DNA of 64,000 bases from a phage: the sequence record PZ386961.1. One strand, 5' to 3'. The stretch's first letter is position 1. Each line of letters begins with the position of its first letter. The position numbers were made by a program, and so were the translations under genes. A model generated the notes under the pieces. That model made no database searches, had not been told where the DNA came from, and saw nothing but the letters and a program-made list of their open reading frames with translations. Positions 1 to 36,394 of this stretch are shown piece after piece.

Positions 1-60
1 TGCTACGTCTTCTTTGTCAGTTGCAATCTGCAATAGTGTGGTTAATTCTACATGTTCCAT
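1..60 (-). CDS. hypothetical protein, N-terminal fragment (gene runs off window start)
   Basis: ATG at 60-58 preceded by the same promoter/leader cassette as neighbouring early genes; only 20 codons inside window. Confidence 0.3.
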   Translation of the reverse strand, partial: MEHVELTTLLQIATDKEDVA

Positions 61-124
61 TTGGAATCTCCTAGTTTAAGGACTTTACTTAGTGGGGAAG
101 GTCATTCCCTCCCCGTTGATTGAT

Positions 125-153
125 AATTTACAGACTTTTGATTGTTTCGTCAA
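125..153 (-). promoter_or_regulatory. sigma70-like promoter (TTGACG-17-TAAATT) with downstream leader hairpin (type A cassette)
   Basis: Minus-strand -35 TTGACG and -10 TAAATT with 17-bp spacer, followed by GGGGAGGG..CCTTCCCC hairpin and AGGAG RBS before ATG at 60. Confidence 0.45.
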
Positions 154-658
154 TATCTTTTTCAATATCTTTTAAAGTTTTTTCTAAGTTCTTGATATTG
201 AAGGATAAACCTTCACCGAGAGTCTTAGAATAGCCACTAGGACGTAAATCATAAAGGCTAATTTGTTCTACATTAAAGAGGCTGACCATTTCACCGCTTA
301 CATCATAAGCTATTGATACAGTATTTTCAGGGGCTTTATAGAACTTGTTTAAGGACTTGATAGAACGTTCATAAGCCATTTTATAACTATTTAAAAGGTC
401 TTTAACGTGGTTGCGAACGTTTTTACACTCATCTAAGTAAATACCTAAGAATAACGGTAATAACTCCGCTACGGCTTGCATAAAGTGAGAGACTACAACG
501 GTTGAAACATTGCGACGATGTACATAATAAGCCCCGTTTTCTGATTTAGTGATGGTTGCAAAGTGTACACCATTACAGCGGAACTCAAAGGTATCTTTAA
601 CAGGCTTAGACATGACACTATTTGAGCGAATGTAGTTGATAGCTTTGAACTTGTTCAT
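128..658 (-). CDS. hypothetical protein
   Basis: 176-aa ORF; conserved leader CCTAAACTGGAGATTCAAAA immediately 5' of ATG; no recognisable motif. Confidence 0.55.
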   Translation of the reverse strand: MNKFKAINYIRSNSVMSKPVKDTFEFRCNGVHFATITKSENGAYYVHRRNVSTVVVSHFMQAVAELLPLFLGIYLDECKNVRNHVKDLLNSYKMAYERSIKSLNKFYKAPENTVSIAYDVSGEMVSLFNVEQISLYDLRPSGYSKTLGEGLSFNIKNLEKTLKDIEKDIDETIKSL

Positions 659-858
659 TTTTGAATCTCCAGTTTAGGAAAGCATTATTGCTTGAGATAA
701 ACTATAAAGTTTTTGGAAGATGATTGCAAGCAATTTTTTAAGCTTATCTATAAAGAATCTTTTAAGTGAATCCCTTTTAGATAAACCCCCTCGAACAAAG
801 TTACCAATGTCAAGGGGTATTGTCAACACTTTTTTAAAAGTTTTTTGTAAGTTATTGA

Positions 859-1200
859 TTAACTGATGAATATTTTTTCAGGTTTTACATAGCTGATACG
901 CTGGCTTTTTAGCAGGTCATCCCAGATTAGCGCGGCAATATGAGAATAGCCGGATTCACGTAAAAGCTTCATTGTTTTACTTCTCGTTTCAAAACGGCTT
1001 GCGTAGTATTCACTGTTCAAGGTCGTTTTATTCCCTTCGTTATCTGTATGGATGATTTGCATCACTTGAAAGGGGCTTACATCCTCGCCTTTGTTCCACT
1101 GCTCAAAGTATTTTAGGCACTGCATAGGCGACATCTTATCACTAACCTGAGTTGACCAAGATGAGCCAGCTTTATCGGTAATTACGGTTACATAAGCCAT
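859..1200 (-). CDS. hypothetical protein
   Basis: 113-aa ORF preceded by type A promoter/leader cassette and AGGAG RBS. Confidence 0.55.
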   Translation of the reverse strand: MAYVTVITDKAGSSWSTQVSDKMSPMQCLKYFEQWNKGEDVSPFQVMQIIHTDNEGNKTTLNSEYYASRFETRSKTMKLLRESGYSHIAALIWDDLLKSQRISYVKPEKIFIS

Positions 1201-1265
1201 TTTTGAATCTCCTAGTTTAAGGACTTTATTTAGTGGGGAAGGTCATTCCCTCCCCGTTAATTGAC

Positions 1266-1294
1266 AATTTACAGATTTTTATCAGGCTTGTCTA
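1266..1294 (-). promoter_or_regulatory. sigma70-like promoter (TAGACA-17-TAAATT), type A cassette
   Basis: Minus-strand -35/-10 hexamers with 17-bp spacer upstream of leader hairpin and gene 859..1200. Confidence 0.45.
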
Positions 1295-1525
1295 GTCTTT
1301 TTCAATGATAATTTCATATTGACCATCAACACTGTCGAAATAGATTCCATCGTCATCTTCTGTCTTAAAGTAGCATTGAATATCATCACTGGCGGGATAG
1401 TCTTGCCTTGCTATCTGGCAAACTTGAATAGCATTTTCTTTACTTCCTGTAAACTCTTCAAGCCCTTTAAAGTCACATGAATGGCCATTACAAAGAGAAA
1501 GGATGAGGTAAATGGTTGTAAGCAT
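1292..1525 (-). CDS. hypothetical small protein with hydrophobic N-terminus
   Basis: 77-aa ORF, N-terminal hydrophobic segment MLTTIYLILSLC. Confidence 0.45.
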   Translation of the reverse strand: MLTTIYLILSLCNGHSCDFKGLEEFTGSKENAIQVCQIARQDYPASDDIQCYFKTEDDDGIYFDSVDGQYEIIIEKD

Positions 1526-1587
1526 GTTTTAAGTCCTCTAAATGGCCCTGTACGGGCCTTAAGTTGGAAATTGGTGCTTTGTATTGG

Positions 1588-2151
1588 TTAGCCTAAAAAG
1601 TCTCTTAGATTGCGTTCTGTGAGGCTGTTAGTAATTTTGTCCAGTAGGTCACAGTACACGGAGCTATCACTGCTATTCTGTACAATTTTTGCAATACTCA
1701 ACAAATCATCGTCAATATAGCCCAAATTGCGGTTAGTTGTATCAGGTACAAAGAAAGGCGCATACATCGCACTAAATTTCGCGGAGTGAATACCAACAAT
1801 CCAGTCTTTATCAAAGTAACCTGTAAAGCTGGCAATTTCGCTCATGTTGTCACAAGAATAATCATCCTCGAGTTCTTCCTCTGGTATATCCATTTCAATA
1901 ACAATCACTTCTTGCGTTTCCATTTGGAAAGCTGCCGTGATAAGCCCCGACTCTAAGGCGTTTTGAATGCAGCGTTCACGGATATAAGGGGCTTCCTCAT
2001 CCTCCAGACATTCCGTTTTGATAACCTTATTCATTGGGTAAACGTATAAACAATCATCCATGTAGGAGCAGTTCCATATTCCGTCCGGCTTATCGCCACC
2101 ATTCAGCATGTTTACAAAGTTTTTCAGAGTAGTGCCGTGATAGCATTTCAT
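1588..2151 (-). CDS. hypothetical acidic protein
   Basis: 187-aa ORF; conserved leader CCTAAACTGGAGATTCTAAA before ATG. Confidence 0.55.
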   Translation of the reverse strand: MKCYHGTTLKNFVNMLNGGDKPDGIWNCSYMDDCLYVYPMNKVIKTECLEDEEAPYIRERCIQNALESGLITAAFQMETQEVIVIEMDIPEEELEDDYSCDNMSEIASFTGYFDKDWIVGIHSAKFSAMYAPFFVPDTTNRNLGYIDDDLLSIAKIVQNSSDSSVYCDLLDKITNSLTERNLRDFLG

Positions 2152-2236
2152 TTTAGAATCTCCAGTTTAGGATTTAGTGGTAAAGTTCTTTATCTGGGGC
2201 TTACTCTATCGAACTATAAGCCCCTTGTAAAGTACT
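2152..2236 (-). promoter_or_regulatory. type B intergenic element: AAAGTACTTT palindrome + GGGGCTTA..TAAGCCCC hairpin + conserved translation-initiation leader
   Basis: Near-identical copies at 2947..3030, 4016..4103 and 4395..4480. Confidence 0.45.
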
Positions 2237-2440
2237 TTATTTGTTATTTTTGACAACTTTTAAAACTGCAAGGTAACCTAAGCAATAAGAATCACCGAAG
2301 AGAGTCCTACCCATGAAAGAATCCTCTTTAATATCCTTTGCAGTGACAGTTTTCTCTACGCCGTGGGAAAGGACTACATCACCAACTTTAATGTCTTTGA
2401 TGTGCGTGGTTTCAATGGTTAAACCGTTGATAATAGCCAT
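2237..2440 (-). CDS. hypothetical protein
   Basis: 67-aa ORF with type A cassette upstream. Confidence 0.5.
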   Translation of the reverse strand: MAIINGLTIETTHIKDIKVGDVVLSHGVEKTVTAKDIKEDSFMGRTLFGDSYCLGYLAVLKVVKNNK

Positions 2441-2504
2441 TTTGAATCTCCTAGTTTAAGGACTTTATTTAGTGGGGAAGGTTGTTCCCTCCCCGTTGAT
2501 GTGT

Positions 2505-2533
2505 AATTTAATCTATCTAAAAACCAGTGTCAA
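2505..2533 (-). promoter_or_regulatory. sigma70-like promoter (TTGACA-17-TAAATT), type A cassette
   Basis: Perfect -35 TTGACA on minus strand, 17-bp spacer, -10 TAAATT, then leader hairpin and AGGAG RBS. Confidence 0.5.
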
Positions 2534-2541
2534 CAAAATTT

Positions 2542-2946
2542 TTAGAGTTCTGCATAAATTGCATCACAGACATCACGAAAATCATGATTTGTCAAATTAC
2601 GTTGCAACCAAGTGGCGAAGAAATCAGCGATTGCAAAATTAGCGTCATACTCGACGGATAGCCATACTTTCACGGCAAATCGAAACATTTTTAAATCAAG
2701 TTCTTTATTCATTACCTTTGATTTGCCTAACATGTCAGCCATTTCATATTGCGCACCGTCTAGCGTGATACCTGCTGCAACGTCAGCCAATGAACTTTTT
2801 ACTTTTTCAACGTCTAAGATAACGCTTTGAATCTTTCCGATAATGTTGTGCAATGTTTCATCTGGTGCTGATGACGTGATAACATTGATTCGATTAACGG
2901 TCAAACGTGCTTTTAAGATTGATAATTCACGATTATTGATAGCCAT
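2542..2946 (-). CDS. hypothetical protein
   Basis: 134-aa ORF; conserved leader CCTAAATTGGAGATTCAAAA before ATG. Confidence 0.55.
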   Translation of the reverse strand: MAINNRELSILKARLTVNRINVITSSAPDETLHNIIGKIQSVILDVEKVKSSLADVAAGITLDGAQYEMADMLGKSKVMNKELDLKMFRFAVKVWLSVEYDANFAIADFFATWLQRNLTNHDFRDVCDAIYAEL

Positions 2947-3030
2947 TTTTGAATCTCCAATTTAGGATTAGTGGTAAAGCTCTTTATCTGGGGCTATCTT
3001 ATCAGCTTGATAACCCCCCTGTAAAGTACT
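2947..3030 (-). promoter_or_regulatory. type B intergenic element (palindrome + GC hairpin + conserved leader)
   Basis: GTAAAGTACTTTAC palindrome at about 3011-3026 adjacent to GGGG..CCCC hairpin. Confidence 0.4.
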
Positions 3031-3303
3031 TTACACTAAATGCAGTTTTTTACCTTTTACTATAATGTAACTCGATGCACTATTGCTGCAAACATCCTGA
3101 TAAATTCTGCGCAAACGTCCTTCATAGTATACTTTCCAGCTAGTTGGAATCTTTTTGCCGTATCCGGTAGCAGTTTTTTGGAGTCCTGCGACTTGCCAAT
3201 CTAAGATATGTTGCTCAGCCTGTAAATCCTCAAAGTGCATCACACCGTCTACATAGTGACGTAGAGTGACATTTAAAGTGCGGCCATTGTTAGTAGTATA
3301 CAT
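3031..3303 (-). CDS. hypothetical protein
   Basis: 90-aa ORF with type A cassette upstream. Confidence 0.5.
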   Translation of the reverse strand: MYTTNNGRTLNVTLRHYVDGVMHFEDLQAEQHILDWQVAGLQKTATGYGKKIPTSWKVYYEGRLRRIYQDVCSNSASSYIIVKGKKLHLV

Positions 3304-3367
3304 TTTAGAATCTCCTAGTTTAAGGACTTTATTTAGTGGGGGAGATTATTGCTCCCCGTTGATGAGT

Positions 3368-3396
3368 AATTTAATCTATCTAAAAATCAGTGTCAA
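3368..3396 (-). promoter_or_regulatory. sigma70-like promoter (TTGACA-17-TAAATT), type A cassette
   Basis: Same architecture as 2505..2533; hairpin GGGGGAG..CTCCCC in leader. Confidence 0.5.
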
Positions 3397-3725
3397 CAGT
3401 TTTGTTTTCGTTTGCTCAACTCTTGAACAATTACAGTATGATAGTCTTTTAAGTCACTAATATTTAAAGCATTTATCAGAGAATTATAATCATCGACTAA
3501 TTGAAAATCATCTTTGAAAATGTCGCTGATTTGATAAGTTCTCGCCCTGAATCTGAAGCTCATTTCTAACCGCTTTAATTGTTCATCGCTCAACCGCTCT
3601 AGAAAGCTCATTACAAGGCTATTGCTAACCTGTTGTGTGATTGCCTTATTTGCTAGATTATAGGCTTTATATGCCTTATAGAGCGCGAAAATGGCAATGA
3701 TTGCAGTGATACCAGTCATTAACAT
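3393..3725 (-). CDS. hypothetical membrane protein
   Basis: 110-aa ORF; N-terminal transmembrane-like segment GITAIIAIFALY. Confidence 0.5.
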   Translation of the reverse strand: MLMTGITAIIAIFALYKAYKAYNLANKAITQQVSNSLVMSFLERLSDEQLKRLEMSFRFRARTYQISDIFKDDFQLVDDYNSLINALNISDLKDYHTVIVQELSKRKQNC

Positions 3726-4015
3726 GGTGCTTCCTCTTTACGTGACACTTTGCCATTTACAGTTATCTCATAAGAATCTAGTAAATCGCTTTTAGATTTG
3801 ACAGGACTTTTAAGAGTATCATCGTAGATATTGACTTGCAATACAGGTTTTTTATACTCCCTGCAACTATTCCATAAGCAAATCACTACACGACGACCTT
3901 TTATTTTGCCGTGTAACCATTCCATAACATCATGACTATTCCTTGATGTTTCAATAAAATCAATTTTGTTAAGTAACTTGCTTAGATTTTCACGGACTTT
4001 ATTTGATAGTTTCAT
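3719..4015 (-). CDS. hypothetical protein
   Basis: 98-aa ORF; conserved leader before ATG. Confidence 0.5.
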   Translation of the reverse strand: MKLSNKVRENLSKLLNKIDFIETSRNSHDVMEWLHGKIKGRRVVICLWNSCREYKKPVLQVNIYDDTLKSPVKSKSDLLDSYEITVNGKVSRKEEAPC

Positions 4016-4103
4016 TTTTGAAACTCCAGTTTAGGATTAGTGGTAAAGCTCTTTATCTGGGGGCTTAAGGTATCAACTTTTAAGCCCCTTGTAAAGTACT
4101 TTA
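4016..4103 (-). promoter_or_regulatory. type B intergenic element
   Basis: GGGGGCTTAAGG..TTTTAAGCCCC hairpin followed by TTGTAAAGTACTTTA. Confidence 0.4.
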
Positions 4104-4394
4104 TCAGTTAATTTTCAGCTTTGCATGACTTCTCATTGTACGAATTGGAGATGTTAAGGCTACGCGTCTAATATATGCCTTTTTCGTGTATACATTTGTC
4201 TTTCCGATAGTGTTTACACATGTAAAAAGATTTATTGGTGAATTTTTTAACTTCAACTGTTTATCAGCCTTCACACCCCATCTTACAGCAGATTGTTTTC
4301 CGTTGTCAACCACTTTCCCGCCTAACTTTTTCGCCATGATGCGAGCGTCATCACGAGTTTTTACAGGAATTACAACGTTTTTGATAGTAGCCAT
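4104..4394 (-). CDS. hypothetical basic protein
   Basis: 96-aa ORF; conserved leader before ATG. Confidence 0.5.
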   Translation of the reverse strand: MATIKNVVIPVKTRDDARIMAKKLGGKVVDNGKQSAVRWGVKADKQLKLKNSPINLFTCVNTIGKTNVYTKKAYIRRVALTSPIRTMRSHAKLKIN

Positions 4395-4480
4395 TTTTGA
4401 ATCTCCAATTTAGGATTTAGTGGTAAAGCTCTTTATCTGGGGGCTTACTTTATCGAACTATAAGCCCCTTGTAAAGTACT
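4395..4480 (-). promoter_or_regulatory. type B intergenic element
   Basis: Almost identical to 2152..2236. Confidence 0.4.
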
Positions 4481-4687
4481 TTATTTGTCGTAGTAGTAAA
4501 TCGCTGTCTGCCTTGTAAATTTCTTAGTGTTTCTTGTAAGGTAACAATCAGATTTGATTGCCGTTTCTACATAGTTGCAATAGTCAGCTTCTGATATTCT
4601 GGACCATACGCCACAGATTTGCATGTAAAAACGTTTTCCCTTTGTGTTAACGTTAGTTGTAACTATCAATTCACGGTAGTAAGTCAT
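4481..4687 (-). CDS. hypothetical protein
   Basis: 68-aa ORF, overlaps next gene by 4 nt (coupled). Confidence 0.45.
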   Translation of the reverse strand: MTYYRELIVTTNVNTKGKRFYMQICGVWSRISEADYCNYVETAIKSDCYLTRNTKKFTRQTAIYYYDK

Positions 4688-4875
4688 TTTTTAATACTCC
4701 ACTTTTCGAACAATTCAGCAGGGAAACGTTCGCTATATCCTTTTAGGGAAAATGTACCGTCTTCGTGGATAGCTTCCACCTGATAAACCTTGTAAGAGCG
4801 AATAGTTAACATTTTGTAAGAGTGTTCATATTTTACGTTAACCTCATCGCCAACTTTGATTTTTCTTGATGCCAT
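4684..4875 (-). CDS. hypothetical protein
   Basis: 63-aa ORF; RBS CTGGAG; promoter at 4926..4954. Confidence 0.5.
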   Translation of the reverse strand: MASRKIKVGDEVNVKYEHSYKMLTIRSYKVYQVEAIHEDGTFSLKGYSERFPAELFEKWSIKK

Positions 4876-4925
4876 TTTTAGATTCTCCAGTTTAGGAAGT
4901 GGGCTTGTTTGCCCGTCTGATGCAA

Positions 4926-4954
4926 ATATTACGTAAACCTGTTTTGTGTGTCAA
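4926..4954 (-). promoter_or_regulatory. sigma70-like promoter (TTGACA-17-TAATAT)
   Basis: Minus-strand hexamers with 17-bp spacer, followed by GGGC..GCCC leader hairpin. Confidence 0.5.
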
Positions 4955-5128
4955 CAGTTTTTATTAAATATTTTTGTAAGGTTGGGAAAGGAACGGGCGC
5001 GCGCGACTACCACAAAACAGAACTACAATCAAGAATTATTTTTCAATCCGCTACAAATTTTTCTGTTGACTTTTATTTCCAGATGTGGTAGCCTTGTGAG
5101 AAATGGCGACATCCCCACCTGCACCCAC

Positions 5129-5311
5129 CTACCTGCACAATTCTAAAATGATTTTTCTTGCCCGACCTGAGCGGGGTCTGCACGTTTTGAAAATGAAAAA
5201 GCTCTTTGGAGATTACCTGCACAGTTTGAAAATGAATTTTCTCTTTGGAGTTCAAAATTCTCTCTACAGATTTCTCTACAGAACTCTACCTGCACAATCC
5301 TAAAATGAAAA
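5129..5311. repeat. four iteron-like direct repeats (about 22 bp, TACCTGCACA-N-T-AAAATGA core) in a 505-bp noncoding region
   Basis: Copies at about 5129, 5176, 5214 and 5287; the region also holds a GCGCGCGCG run and tandem TCTCTACAGA. Confidence 0.6.
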
Positions 5312-5381
5312 AGCCCTCCTTACCTGAAAAATTTACCAGATAAGTAAGGCTTAATCTATTGTGAATATTCTACAGAGTTTC

Positions 5382-6167
5382 TTAGTTCTTTGCGTCTAAG
5401 AAGGTAACTTCTGATGATGAGAAGACCGTCTCGATATCCTCATCAGTTCTTGCATAGATATATGTATCTGCATCACTGCCAAATGTTACTGCAATCCTGT
5501 GATTGCTCTTCGACAGGTGGGTAACTAGAGCGTTACTTAGAGACATCTTTTCAACCGGAGGGTTACTTTGATGTATCTTACCTTTTCTTCGTCTGAAGAG
5601 GGTAACTGCATTATCCGTGAACACAACTACACCTGCAAAGTATTCTGGTTCACAGTAGTTCTTCCAACCTGAGCGTAACTTGTGGTACATCTCTCCTTCA
5701 TAGACATATAGATAAACATCTACACTCTTCATCACCTGATTGATGATAACTGTGACGGCTTGAGGGTCCAACCCACCGATACCTGCACCAATCATAGGTA
5801 AACCAACTTTCTTCAACTGATTAACTTCACAGTATCTGTTAAGCTGTTTCAAAGATGACTCTAAAGCACTGTATCGGGCATCTTTACCAGTCTTAAGCTG
5901 AGTGTAAAGGTTAGCTATACGACCTTGTTTTAAACGTGCTACAGAGAAATTACCCAGTAAATTTTCACAGGGTTTGTGTCCTATACCACCTGCATACAGA
6001 TAAACTTCTGTATCGGTCTCATATGCTTTTGGGTAAAGTTTAGAAATCTTGTCAGCGATACCTGCACCCATTAAATTCATACAGTTGCAACCGTGACCGA
6101 TGATGTCAAACTTACCTTTATCAAATGCGGCAAAGATATCACCATTAATTATTTTTACAATACCCAT
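5382..6167 (-). CDS. macrodomain protein, TARG1/OARD1/Poa1p-like (ADP-ribose hydrolase family) with unknown C-terminal domain
   Basis: Motifs NGDIF, DIIGHGCNCMNLMGAGIA and GLPMIGAGIGGLD match TARG1 GDLF / AHCISEDCRMGAGIA / PRIGCGLD; RBS GGGAGAG; 261 aa. Confidence 0.7.
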   Translation of the reverse strand: MGIVKIINGDIFAAFDKGKFDIIGHGCNCMNLMGAGIADKISKLYPKAYETDTEVYLYAGGIGHKPCENLLGNFSVARLKQGRIANLYTQLKTGKDARYSALESSLKQLNRYCEVNQLKKVGLPMIGAGIGGLDPQAVTVIINQVMKSVDVYLYVYEGEMYHKLRSGWKNYCEPEYFAGVVVFTDNAVTLFRRRKGKIHQSNPPVEKMSLSNALVTHLSKSNHRIAVTFGSDADTYIYARTDEDIETVFSSSEVTFLDAKN

Positions 6168-6588: not shown

Positions 6589-6889
6589 AGTTTACCTTCT
6601 CAGTTAGCTCATATAAATCAACATGCTCAATACTATCAATGTTGATATCAATCTTTTTGAAGCGTTCTATCACTTCGTTGTCAGTCATCCATATCAGACA
6701 CCAATGATTCTGAATGGATTCTTCAAGAAGGTCAACACAATCTTTAAAAGTTTTTGTATCACTTCTCGTTCCAACTACTGCGATTGTTCCATATAGCCAC
6801 CCACCATTGCCATAAGATACTTGCGCTACGCCAACTTCTTTACCTTTCTCGTAGTAAACGGCTACAAAGTCTCTTCCATTAATCTGCAT
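6563..6889 (-). CDS. hypothetical protein
   Basis: ORF 6563..6928; start moved to internal ATG at 6889, which has an AGAGGA RBS. Confidence 0.45.
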   Translation of the reverse strand: MQINGRDFVAVYYEKGKEVGVAQVSYGNGGWLYGTIAVVGTRSDTKTFKDCVDLLEESIQNHWCLIWMTDNEVIERFKKIDINIDSIEHVDLYELTEKVNYESNSSQR

Positions 6890-7193
6890 TTGTAAGTTCC
6901 TCTGTTGGTAATTCACCATTTTCAGCAAAGTATTGAAGGTACGGCAACAACTCTTTTACCTGTTCTTGATTGAGCTTCATTCTTTGATTACCTACAAAAT
7001 CTTTACCAACTAATGCTGGGATATCAAGTGTTTTCCAGCCACCATCTAGGTACTGAACAGAGACCTCTTTAGCACCTAACCAAATACATGGTTCATATGA
7101 TGAACTCTCTTGTAAAGTACAAATTTCCCCTTTAGCATCTTTAAATTCTGCATAAGAAAATCCACGATTGGTTGGCTGGAATTGCATAATCAT
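6879..7193 (-). CDS. hypothetical protein
   Basis: 104-aa ORF; true start may be the third codon (GAGGA RBS). Confidence 0.45.
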   Translation of the reverse strand: MIMQFQPTNRGFSYAEFKDAKGEICTLQESSSYEPCIWLGAKEVSVQYLDGGWKTLDIPALVGKDFVGNQRMKLNQEQVKELLPYLQYFAENGELPTEELTNAD

Positions 7194-7462
7194 TTCCTCG
7201 TTTTAAGAACTGCTAAGATTTCTTTAGAATCTGGTAAGAACCATGTGTAGTGATTCTCTTTGATTTCTGGATGAGTGTCAACCTTTATTTTGCACTCTTT
7301 ACCAACATGCTTAAGCTGTGCTGTGATACCTTGCATAAAGATGTGACACATTACATTATCCATAATCGTAGGTAAGAAATCAATCCTCATGTAAGTATCT
7401 TTCGGTCTCGGTAGAAGTAAGTAACCTTCTGTGTAGAAAGTTTCATCATTACTTTGTGTCAT
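7190..7462 (-). CDS. hypothetical protein
   Basis: 90-aa ORF, 4-nt overlap with downstream gene. Confidence 0.45.
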   Translation of the reverse strand: MTQSNDETFYTEGYLLLPRPKDTYMRIDFLPTIMDNVMCHIFMQGITAQLKHVGKECKIKVDTHPEIKENHYTWFLPDSKEILAVLKTRK

Positions 7463-8021: not shown

Positions 8022-8501
8022 TTAACCGAGGACTTTAGCAAGGATATTTGCAGCCATCGAAGAAGCTTTTGCAGCAGCAACTACGCCAGCTTTGACAGTG
8101 CTATCCTTAATAGCAGATACCGTTGCAGCATCAGTAAAGAGATAAGTGATTGTTTTAGAACCACTTGTAAAGGAAAGCATAAGAGTAGTTTCCAGATTGA
8201 AAGAGCGATACGGAGCACCTTCTTTAACGATACCTTCAGCACCTAACTCTGAAGCCTTACCCATATCATAGATAGTCATCAGGTTTTCTTTGTGTGCAGT
8301 CGTTGAACCAGCACCTTTTACGTGCTTTTTAACATTCAACAATGCACGATATTCACGAATACTACCATCAGCTTTTACATTAACAGCACGGAAAATTTTA
8401 CCTTCAAAGTTACCTTGAATCATTTTACGAACTACTTCAGATTTGTTTGCCGTATCGTCCAGTGCTACCGTAATGATATTGTTCATAAGTTCTTCTCTCA
8501 A
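8022..8501 (-). CDS. hypothetical protein
   Basis: 159-aa ORF, Ala-rich C-terminus. Confidence 0.5.
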   Translation of the reverse strand: MREELMNNIITVALDDTANKSEVVRKMIQGNFEGKIFRAVNVKADGSIREYRALLNVKKHVKGAGSTTAHKENLMTIYDMGKASELGAEGIVKEGAPYRSFNLETTLMLSFTSGSKTITYLFTDAATVSAIKDSTVKAGVVAAAKASSMAANILAKVLG

Positions 8502-9193
8502 TGTTTAACTAACATAGTTTTAATGTGTGGAAGGATTCTGTTTACCTTCTGAACATTATTCTCTGTATCTTCTATAAAGCATACTATATTAAAGTAAGGA
8601 AGAATGCAAGACTGAATCATCCTCACTTTCAAACTTTCTGCACTTATAGAGTTAGTTCCAAAACCACGCATAAAAAGCAAGTAATCATGCTCTATATTGT
8701 GCCTTAAAAACATCTCAGTAGGTATTCTCTGAGATTCACCTCTTGCTGTCAAGAGTCCAACTGCTGCATGATTTGCAATTGCATCAATAATGTTGAAAAC
8801 ATATGTTGGTTTTGCTCTTACAGAATCAAGAAGATTAGTGTACTGTGAGAATGACCCATCAGTCAATTCCGTTGAGCAATCTTCGTGATTAAAATTTGTA
8901 AGAACGCCATCAATATCTGCTAAGATGAGGTTACCTTTTTCTACAAGGTCTTTATTGACTATGACTAAACTATCACGCCTTACACCTATAGTTTGTCCAG
9001 TCTCTTTGTCCACAACGTTCACAATGGGTTCTGATGTGTGGAACTCTTCAAGTGAACATACAACTTCTCTTGCAGTGTCTTCAAAATCCCTGCACTGTTC
9101 TGGAGTCCATACACAGGAATCAAGACATAACTCATGAGGATGCAAGTCATAAGCGTGGCACAGGACTTCATCAGACTTTCTTAATTTTTTCAT
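8498..9193 (-). CDS. HAD-superfamily phosphatase (possible nucleotidase) with Cys-rich N-terminal extension
   Basis: HAD motif I LILADIDGVLTN; motif II-like GLLTARGES; acidic motif FIEDTENN. Confidence 0.5.
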   Translation of the reverse strand: MKKLRKSDEVLCHAYDLHPHELCLDSCVWTPEQCRDFEDTAREVVCSLEEFHTSEPIVNVVDKETGQTIGVRRDSLVIVNKDLVEKGNLILADIDGVLTNFNHEDCSTELTDGSFSQYTNLLDSVRAKPTYVFNIIDAIANHAAVGLLTARGESQRIPTEMFLRHNIEHDYLLFMRGFGTNSISAESLKVRMIQSCILPYFNIVCFIEDTENNVQKVNRILPHIKTMLVKH

Positions 9194-9719
9194 GATTTAC
9201 CTTAGAAATGTTTGTTGCAAATTCACATTGAGCGATAACTTTCATATTGTTATAGACATCTTGAGAGTATTTCTTAGCTTTAGGGATTCTGTACGAATAC
9301 CCAGCATTATATGATGCTAAAACTTTTTGTAAAGTCTTCTTTGACTTTGGGTGACCGTGTACCTTCGTCCAAAACTCAAGCTCTTTATGTGTTTCTTTTG
9401 CGGCATAGTCAAAATCTTTTAAGAGTTTCTTTTTAGCAACATTAGGACTAATTTTGTTACGCTTTACAACAGTCTTCAAGTGATTCTGGAAGATACCATA
9501 GTCATGGGTCTTTTTATTTTCTACCTTCAGACCTAACTCTGACTCTTGTAAGGCTATAGCTGCTAGAGTGATACCCCAACCTTTACCCATGTTATTCTCA
9601 CCATACTGGTAAGCTTTTAACATGTTCACTTTTTGGCTAATTGATAGCTCTGGGCAGTCAACTGCATAAGATAAGTGTGCTGTAAACATTAAGCACAAAC
9701 CTAGAATCAATTTCTTCAT
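9171..9719 (-). CDS. secreted lytic transglycosylase-like protein (SLT domain), possible endolysin
   Basis: N-terminal signal peptide MKKLILGLCLMFTAHLSYA; catalytic-type motif LQESE...DYGIFQ resembling SLT E-S...G-L-M-Q. Confidence 0.5.
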   Translation of the reverse strand: MKKLILGLCLMFTAHLSYAVDCPELSISQKVNMLKAYQYGENNMGKGWGITLAAIALQESELGLKVENKKTHDYGIFQNHLKTVVKRNKISPNVAKKKLLKDFDYAAKETHKELEFWTKVHGHPKSKKTLQKVLASYNAGYSYRIPKAKKYSQDVYNNMKVIAQCEFATNISKVNHEKIKKV

Positions 9720-36137: not shown

Positions 36138-36394
36138 GTAAGCCTCTTTTAAGTAACTATTAAGTTTTAATCTTTTATCTTAACGTATTCTATACGTTAT
36201 ACTTTAAAGCTTTTTAAAAGCTATTAAACAATCTTTTAAGAGTTTTAAAGTATCTGTATAGTTAAACTGTTAAGTAACCTTTTAAGTAAAAACCCACTTC
36301 GCAAAGATTAACACCTTGTCAAGTACATTGTCAACTTGCTTTTTATAATTTTTTGCAGTAATGTATGAGGTTAATGATTTTAGAGGGAGTAAAA
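36138..36394. promoter_or_regulatory. divergent AT-rich control region between early minus-strand block and DNA polymerase gene
   Basis: 257-bp noncoding; TATAAT at about 36344 and TTGTCA/TTGACA hexamers on both strands; exact promoters not resolved. Confidence 0.4.

Follow-up and report, generated by a model that had tools for sequence, protein, structure and literature searches.

A conserved non-coding array of direct repeats between the macro-domain gene and the terminal early genes of a Felixounavirus genome

Background

What is the purpose of a 505-bp stretch of phage DNA that holds no plausible gene, separates two same-strand genes, and carries four spaced copies of a single motif? The question arises from 64,000 nucleotides of sequence record PZ386961.1 (the window), which come from a Felixounavirus (Felix O1-like myovirus) genome whose annotated relatives are Ounavirinae. 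The locus, referred to here as the island, lies between a macro-domain gene and the next early gene, and because both of these genes are on the minus strand the island is to be read on that strand (the gene strand). A 1.5-kb query around it matched 227 phage records, nearly all of them Felixounavirus, at 89-92% identity. An earlier note, made from the letters of the window, had described iteron-like repeats here and proposed a replication origin or a multi-site operator. The Felix O1 genome paper does not list this island, although it gives other direct repeats and promoters.

Judged by its sequence, the island is a non-coding, strongly constrained, cis-acting DNA element, and its repeats very probably make up a functional array of protein-binding sites. 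The evidence for this is given first, followed by the roles that such an array might have.

Results

Four copies of one motif at a single locus

The core of the repeat, TGCAC-N7-AAATGA on the plus strand and TCATTT-N7-GTGCA on the gene strand, occurs exactly at plus-strand positions 5134, 5179, 5218 and 5291. The four copies share one orientation within a span of at most 175 bp, and no other exact copy occurs in the 64 kb (0.09 expected). When two mismatches were allowed, the core appeared in the rest of the window at chance frequency only, with no excess of degenerate copies. A dispersed class of promoters or operators was rejected, since the motif is absent from the rest of the window. The earlier note had drawn the array as four 22-bp repeats, and all four are present, but the gap is N4 before (T/G)AAAATGA and not N3 before TAAAATGA. 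A longer pattern, TACCTGCACA-N5-AAAATGA, has only three exact matches in the window, at 5130, 5214 and 5287 (0.36 expected; none of 100 shuffles reached three), and although the fourth copy at 5175-5196 (GGTCTGCACGTTTTGAAAATGA) is degenerate under this pattern, its core is intact. The complete unit is ~38 bp long and consists, on the gene strand, of a CTCCAAAGRG-like left patch, a 5-nt A- or T-run, TCATTT, N7 and GTGCA(GG)TAG (Table 1).

The first repeat is joined to the intrinsic terminator of the macro-domain operon. A possible imperfect terminator hairpin had been noted at about 5312-5345, and it proved to be a good intrinsic terminator on the minus strand, with a slightly longer stem, a folding free energy of -20.1 kcal/mol and UUUUU directly after the hairpin. 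It was missed by a consensus terminator scan because its loop exceeds 8 nt, while the record of phage KhF2 annotates the corresponding hairpin as a Rho-independent terminator. The left part of repeat 1 is formed by the 3′ arm and tail of the terminator. Homologous hairpins of -12 to -24 kcal/mol were present in all six lineages examined, with varied 5′ arms fitted to a near-invariant 3′ arm, as expected if the arm and tail also serve as part of the repeat. Because each repeat unit resembles this 3′ arm and tail (GGAGGGCTTTTTCATTTT vs CAAAGAGCTTTTTCATTTT), the sequences suggest that the array arose by duplication of the terminator arm and tail.

Conservation of the array in relatives and in one distant phage

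The island directly follows the macro-domain gene in 289 phage records. Its identity to the window is 85-97% within Felixounavirus and ~70% in Mooglevirus and Suspvirus, and in Kolesnikvirus (Erwinia phages M7 and Ea21-4-like) the repeat segment alone is alignable. The order of elements on the gene strand is the same in every lineage: terminator, repeats, C-rich or variable tract, and promoter. The repeats are spaced at 73/39/45 bp in Felixounavirus and Suspvirus, 75/41/45 bp in Mooglevirus and 37/37/39 bp in Kolesnikvirus, with copy number ranging from three to six across all relatives examined, among which there are two iteron types (GTGCAGGTAG vs GTGCATAG).

When IMG/VR was scanned for pairs of cores 17-30 nt apart, the hits were Ounavirinae, some chance matches in tail-fibre coding repeats, and one informative outlier. 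This is an unclassified 88-kb phage (L068, positions 1-1200, and L116, positions 6600-7350; IMGVR_UViG_3300045988_063805) with no close GenBank relative, in which four open reading frames (ORFs) in 20 kb have detectable Felixounavirus homologues at 30-44% identity. It carries a short macro-domain gene (37% identical), adjoined by a Dam-like methylase gene and followed by a ~570-nt island with five to six copies of AAAWTCATTTTAAAAACGTGCATAGG. Dense TTAACA repeats lie beside these iterons and again ~7 kb away, giving an Ounavirinae-like layout of macro-domain gene, iteron island, ~6.5 kb of small same-strand genes, and a TTAACA-rich non-coding tract. Conservation in relatives was one of the points on which the earlier note had staked its proposal, and the array is kept in four genera and in this distant phage.

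Some Felixounavirus genomes (L043, which is BPS17L1, MG646672; L054; L084) have a three-repeat variant of the array. In the BPS17L1-type island the terminator stem is rewritten (GGCTGCC...GGCGGCC) and the unit before repeat 3 is Kolesnikvirus-like (CCGGATAG), which points to inter-genus recombination inside the island.

Strength of constraint and recognition at the DNA level

Pairwise diversity in the island was compared with that of the macro-domain gene in the same alignments, of 18 Felixounavirus sequences or of 24 sequences including Suspvirus and Mooglevirus. For the 11 core bases of each repeat it was 0.012 and 0.009 in the two sets, respectively, and for the 14 nt 5′ of TCATTT (the A/T run and CTCCAAAGRG) it was 0.010 and 0.067, compared to 0.018 and 0.096 at second codon positions and 0.136 and 0.265 at third codon positions of the gene. 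The core bases are ~10-30 times less variable than those third positions. The N7 inner spacer is near neutral in sequence (0.06 and 0.20), and its length is constant in 80 of 80 distinct copies. Two to three conserved patches about one helical turn apart, joined by a spacer of fixed length and free sequence, would be expected of a protein that reads one face of the DNA. Immediately before TCATTT, some copies have five nucleotides rich in A and others five rich in T, a state that each copy keeps across genera. As A5 and T5 runs are equal as DNA A-tracts and opposite as RNA, recognition would appear to be at the DNA level rather than the RNA level.

Position, core constraint, fixed spacer and uniqueness together argue strongly that the repeats are recognition sites, so the iteron-like protein sites of the earlier note stand, while the replication origin attached to them was not confirmed. 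Because the motif persists where phage proteins have diverged almost beyond recognition, the binding partner must, on this reasoning, be very conserved, and it may be a host protein. Compared by eye with consensus sequences, the motif did not fit sigma-70, sigma-54, sigma-E or T4 MotA/late promoters, nor the sites of IHF or CRP, the marbox or ops; it likewise did not fit the quoted consensus for DnaA.

The degree of constraint also bears on whether the array could be debris, that is, the decayed remains of tandem copies of the terminator tail that chance or hitch-hiking has preserved. The likeness of the units to the terminator arm and tail is what one would expect of such debris, but a core diversity 10-30 times under that of synonymous sites, and the persistence of the array across four genera and into a phage whose protein homology is barely detectable, effectively refute this explanation, which we regard as scarcely credible.

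Protein-coding and RNA explanations

The expectation that the region has no plausible ORF was borne out, as mechanical ORFs of 47-66 aa exist and none is conserved as a reading frame. One plus-strand ORF, at 5103-5303, would give a 66-aa product in which YLHxxKM motifs recur; most Felixounavirus genomes keep it open, and the records of Moogle, CHB7, SB18 and others list it as a hypothetical protein. It passes three repeats in frame because the spacings of 39 and 45 bp are divisible by three, but at spacings of 41, 43 and 37 bp (the Moogle group, L015 and Kolesnik) the frame is broken and the DNA motif retained. Neither its start codon nor its ribosome-binding site is conserved, the peptide between repeats changes non-conservatively (ARPERG, ARPDFS, ARHSPG), and a Pfam search of the ORF gave no match. 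A protein-coding gene was rejected on the frame breaks, the non-conserved start and core bases that are invariant at all three codon positions, leaving a small plus-strand protein very improbable.

A functional RNA was considered next to this, as a 3′-untranslated-region-derived, antisense or host-factor-titrating repeat RNA such as a type III antitoxin mimic. The minus-strand RNA does fold better than shuffled sequences (z = -2.6, 0/100; plus strand z = +0.7), but this excess is mostly due to the terminator, and RNAalifold on both strands found compensatory support for the terminator alone, on which ground a conserved RNA structure was rejected. A few helices tolerate G:C to G:U changes, on the minus strand only, whereas the predicted helices of the array are invariant or broken rather than compensated. 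The 37-45-nt repeat period is similar to that of ToxI-type antitoxin arrays, which are direct repeats of about 36-45 nt, and the genes upstream form an RNA-repair-like module (polynucleotide kinase and macro domain). A single RNA motif is nevertheless incompatible with the coexistence of A-run and T-run copies, and the repeats directly follow a strong terminator and have no promoter of their own. There was no relevant Rfam match at E <= 1 in the window, Moogle, M7 or L068, no tRNA, and no similar sequence in E. coli genomes or plasmids. We consider an RNA role quite unlikely, and the RNA, small-protein and junk explanations improbable even when taken together.

Mimicry of a host or plasmid sequence was also rejected, with no meaningful match in 5,426 E. 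coli genomes or plasmids, and a two-copy pattern scan of the genomes of 185,579 species gave no match in Enterobacterales.

A possible replication origin

As to the role of the array, our answer is a guess: the likeliest is that of a phage replication origin or initiator-loading site, a role suggested by analogy and put forward as possible rather than probable. On this model the four sites would be bound by a phage or host protein that oligomerises there and bends the A-tracts, with replication starting in the neighbouring AT-rich and actively transcribed DNA. The context is origin-like, in that a single locus of direct repeats lies between transcription units, near AT-rich DNA and a strong predicted promoter, and the array has the three or more same-orientation direct repeats at one locus that characterize iteron origins. 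The other possibility raised in the earlier note, an operator of the adjacent promoter, is a poor fit, since the repeats are set against the terminator, with the -35 hexamer 180-350 bp downstream of them.

A number of results weigh against an origin. The island has no outstanding unwinding segment, its best 40-bp window (z = 2.2) being the promoter itself, and the claim that the repeats adjoin AT-rich DNA is weak, given that the least stable 40-bp window in the island ranks only ~880th of the 64,000 positions. GC skew has no inflection at 5 kb, although skew follows gene orientation here. No initiator gene was recognised, as ten flanking proteins had matches to the macro domain or to families of unknown function only, and a Pharokka-annotated relative lists a primase/helicase and a polymerase and no initiator. 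The repeat period of 37-45 bp (73-77 bp for one gap) is longer than the 20-24 bp or so of typical iteron origins. The palindrome and GC run of the AT-rich module are not conserved in Kolesnikvirus or L068, and the searchable literature yielded no paper pairing iterons with Felix O1, Felixounavirus, Ounavirinae, wV8 or Ea21-4. Finally, a more classical origin candidate than the island exists at 36.15-36.3 kb, in a divergent intergenic region (36138-36364) upstream of the DNA polymerase gene where duplex stability is the lowest in the window and GC skew changes sign. The cluster within it (36146-36279) has seven copies of CT[GTA]T[TA]AAG, a motif found 95 times in the window against 20 expected (~4.7-fold excess) that also fills the terminal repeat of relatives, and this region could represent a promoter class, a regulator site or a true origin region. 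Because only its repeats, among the properties tested, were as expected for an iteron origin, the island was not classed as one.

The small genes downstream were tried as a source of the binding protein and rejected, as they vary from one Felixounavirus strain to another and L068 has no homologues of them.

A possible boundary at the inner edge of the terminal genes

Rather than starting replication, the array could mark off the terminal host-takeover genes from the long rightward transcription unit. A protein on the four sites, just downstream of the terminator, would act as an insulator by blocking read-through RNA polymerase, or, in a variant of this idea, the bound protein would nucleate silencing or timing control of the terminal block of ~14 small early genes. 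The arrangement of the locus is consistent with such a boundary. Repeat 1 is fused to the terminator in the Felix, Moogle and Susp types, the 5′ arm of the terminator varies freely against a nearly constant 3′ arm, and all sites are oriented along transcription. The island also forms the inner border of the small-gene block, in which each gene has its own sigma-70 promoter. A single array could not, however, occupy 14 downstream promoters directly. In many alleles the repeats are followed by a C-rich, G-poor tract that would suit Rho loading on read-through RNA, but the allele of the window has no such tract, and the L068 repeats are not fused to a clear terminator. Given also that no such system has been described for Felix O1-like phages, we hold a boundary role to be unlikely.

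Genome termini and a possible DNA-entry signal

In the Felixounavirus phage UAB_Phi87, a direct terminal repeat (DTR) of 608 bp was determined experimentally (PMC4837284, Fig. S1). Its sequence has no match in the 64-kb window and maps to bases 9-582 of record PP952733, the genome announcement for which gives DTR termini by PhageTerm. The island of PP952733 is at 80,686-81,194, which is 6.4-7.0 kb from the right end of unique sequence and ~7.0-7.6 kb (8%) from the physical right terminus, the intervening DNA corresponding to window positions 1-4875 plus ~1 kb. In L068/L116, the distance from the iteron island to the TTAACA-rich, Felix-DTR-like tract is again ~7 kb.

This position would suit a pause or stop signal for DNA entry, or a terminal-segment boundary, similar to the injection stop signal (iss) of T5. 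Entry would halt at the repeats once the first ~8% of the genome was inside, so that the terminal early genes would be expressed first. In T5, too, the iss is untranslated, consists of repeats and is highly conserved, and it lies at 7.9% of the genome (bioRxiv 10.1101/866236); the distance of ~7 kb to a DTR-like tract recurs in the very distant L068/L116. The support is nevertheless purely positional, and which end enters first is an assumption. Transcription of the terminal genes runs toward the end, two-step transfer is not known from Felix O1-like phages, and the island lacks the paired DnaA boxes characteristic of T5. Compared by eye with TTWTNCACA, the Felix cores (ACCTGCACA) match at 6/9 positions and the Kolesnik cores (CTATGCACA) at 8/9, with no pairs 3 bp apart. 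An entry-pause signal is in our estimation improbable, and the same holds for two-stage genome delivery or expression in Felix O1-like phages with the island as its cis-acting stop or boundary signal; if true, it would mean that a myovirus lineage unrelated to T5 has a T5-like first-step transfer based on another DNA motif and on a highly conserved, possibly host, binding protein.

Several records start or end inside ~4970-5090, namely four IMG/VR contigs (L012, L013, L020 and L026) and GenBank entries ON210138 (EC106) and MT446388 (TH10). In contig L020, a fragment that codes for the N-terminus of E. coli MukB is joined on at about window position 5165. Such breaks made a genome end or pac site look plausible here, which was rejected because the experimental DTR is located elsewhere. 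Their likely cause is co-assembly of related phages at the biallelic tract described below, although a site-specific nick or free end is possible.

Other elements of the island

Most of the features listed in the earlier note, namely the repeats, GC run, tandem decamer, promoter and hairpin, are present in the island (Table 1). The promoter that it had placed at 4926-4954 was found as a predicted sigma-70 promoter on the minus strand, with hexamers that are conserved in relatives and a variable spacer. The (GC)4 run corresponds to GCGCGCGCG, and the palindrome of the surrounding AT-rich module shows one-sided changes only (G:C to G:U), with no compensatory pairs.

The tandem decamer, TCTCTACAGA repeated with a 12-bp period, has variants in relatives (TCTGGACAGA and the palindromic TCTGTACAGA). 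With one mismatch or fewer it occurs 22 times in the window compared to 6.9 expected, but as a genome-wide signal it was rejected, because the copies beyond the island sit in coding sequence without a shared context; the excess is probably oligonucleotide or codon bias.

The tract after repeat 4 has two unrelated alleles in Felixounavirus. The allele of the window is G-rich on the minus strand and carries an extra CCTGCAC, while many relatives (L015, L023, Moogle and BPS17L1) and other genera have a C-rich tract of 40-50 nt, the plus strand of which (GGGAGGAAGGGGAGTAAGAGGGGATGGTGGGG) fits a G-quadruplex motif.

Table 1 Positions of the island, its elements and neighbouring features in the window
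Feature	Position	Strand	Description
Macro-domain gene	5382-6167	-	261 aa, annotated 'phosphatase'; Pfam Macro, phrog_335; upstream of island
Non-coding island	4876-5381	read on -	505 bp, between macro-domain gene and next early gene
Intrinsic terminator of macro-domain operon	5306-5352	-	Stem 5313-5350, loop ~5326-5333, U-run 5308-5312
Repeat 1	5291-5322	-	Core 5291-5308 (TGCACAATCCTAAAATGA on +, TCATTTTAGGATTGTGCA on -), T-run, left patch; overlaps terminator 3′ arm
TCTCTACAGA, two copies	5261-5270, 5273-5282		12-bp period; in long spacer between repeats 1 and 2
Repeat 2	5218-5249	-	Core 5218-5235, A-run (AAAAT), left patch CTCCAAAGAG
Repeat 3	5179-5210	-	Core 5179-5196, T-run, CTCCAAAGAG; the copy called degenerate in the earlier note
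Repeat 4	5134-5165	-	Core 5134-5151, A-run, left patch GGTCGGGCAAG; copy most conserved in Erwinia phages
Variable biallelic tract	5083-5129		After repeat 4; pairwise diversity 0.29-0.37
Extra CCTGCAC	5118-5124	-	Partial duplicate of right half-site; only in window-type allele
AT-rich module	4990-5082		Conserved; imperfect inverted repeat ~5027-5071 (AGTCAA...TTGAtT), then GC run
Alternating purine-pyrimidine GC run GCGCGCGCG	4997-5005		Unique in window
Sigma-70 type early promoter (predicted)	4954-4926	-	TTGACA-17-TAATAT, 10/12 matches; A/T-rich upstream stretch 4955-4985
5′ leader and ribosome-binding site of next early gene	4876-4925	-	Ribosome-binding-site piece common to five other early genes in window
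Next early gene, 63-aa ORF	4684-4875	-	Downstream of island
Promoter-plus-leader modules	2157-2244, 2952-3033, 4021-4104, 4400-4488		86-95% identity; preceding successive small early genes
Shorter leader/ribosome-binding-site pieces	656-680, 2151-2172, 2933-2974, 4013-4043, 4390-4415, 4873-4898

Gene neighbourhood

Upstream of the island on the gene strand is a module (8022-9719 and 5382-6167) of a polynucleotide kinase, two conserved proteins of unknown function and the macro-domain protein. Of this neighbourhood, the distant phage L068 shares the kinase/macro-domain module alone, which may be an RNA-repair or anti-defence unit that travels with the island. Downstream, ~14 small genes of unknown function lie between the island and the right terminus, all transcribed toward the terminus, and most of them are preceded by a repeated promoter-leader module of 85-90 bp. 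KhF2, allfine, BPS17W1 and other relatives have an additional gene cassette of ~480 bp between two such modules, which suggests cassette gain and loss through recombination between promoter repeats. The 64-kb window has no tRNA gene, whereas the phage group has ~20; the tRNA cluster and the terminal repeat both lie in the ~23 kb of genome beyond the window.

Discussion

Among known systems, the island appears by analogy to work most like an iteron array. Iteron origins (lambda ori, the RepA/RepE/pi iterons of plasmids, T4 oriE with RepEB, and P4 ori/crr) have the same single-locus, same-orientation repeats, with a bipartite asymmetric core (18 bp in the island, or about two major grooves) and flanking A-tracts, and with AT-rich DNA and a promoter nearby. 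The lambda ori has four O-protein sites, the same copy number as the island. Apart from its longer period, the island differs from these origins in its unit of ~38 bp with a third patch, in the fusion of the first copy to a terminator, and in having no recognised initiator gene or marked unwinding element.

The T5 iss is similar in that it is untranslated, rich in repeats and better conserved than the genes beside it, and in that it lies ~8% from the terminus, at the inner edge of a small early gene block. It differs in lying inside a 10-kb terminal repeat, in its length of 1.2 kb, and in its paired DnaA boxes and large inverted repeats, whereas the repeats of the island are direct and the terminal repeat is ~0.6 kb long and 6.4-7.0 kb distant. 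The sopC centromere array of F, built of tandem 43-bp units, also has ~40-bp direct units with a short specific core and forms a nucleoprotein complex, to which the island may be likened, but the cores of the island are not palindromic and no ParA/ParB-type genes were seen nearby; we know of no need for partition in a virulent phage. ToxI arrays and the pseudo-ToxI mimics of phages share direct repeats of ~36-45 nt in phage non-coding DNA, but the island has no Rfam ToxI match or toxin partner, its repeats come after a terminator and not a promoter, and no single RNA motif could cover its A-run and T-run variants. The island is not a member of the T5 iss class, of known RNA families, or of DTR or pac sites. 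We describe it as a new, previously undescribed conserved cis-acting repeat array, unusual in its 38-bp unit, its fusion to a terminator and its fixed distance from the terminus.

In Salmonella and E. coli typing, biocontrol and therapy, Felix O1-like phages are in wide use. The island occurs once in the 64-kb window and is among the best conserved non-coding sequences of the group, exceeding most of the group's proteins in conservation. For engineers and annotators it is also a practical hazard, with spurious ORFs in several records and assemblies that tend to break within it. Identifying what binds the 38-bp unit would probably reveal either a replication initiator or a new mechanism of boundary or entry control in these phages, and if the binder were a replication initiator, it would be useful for engineering and for phage-dependent plasmids.

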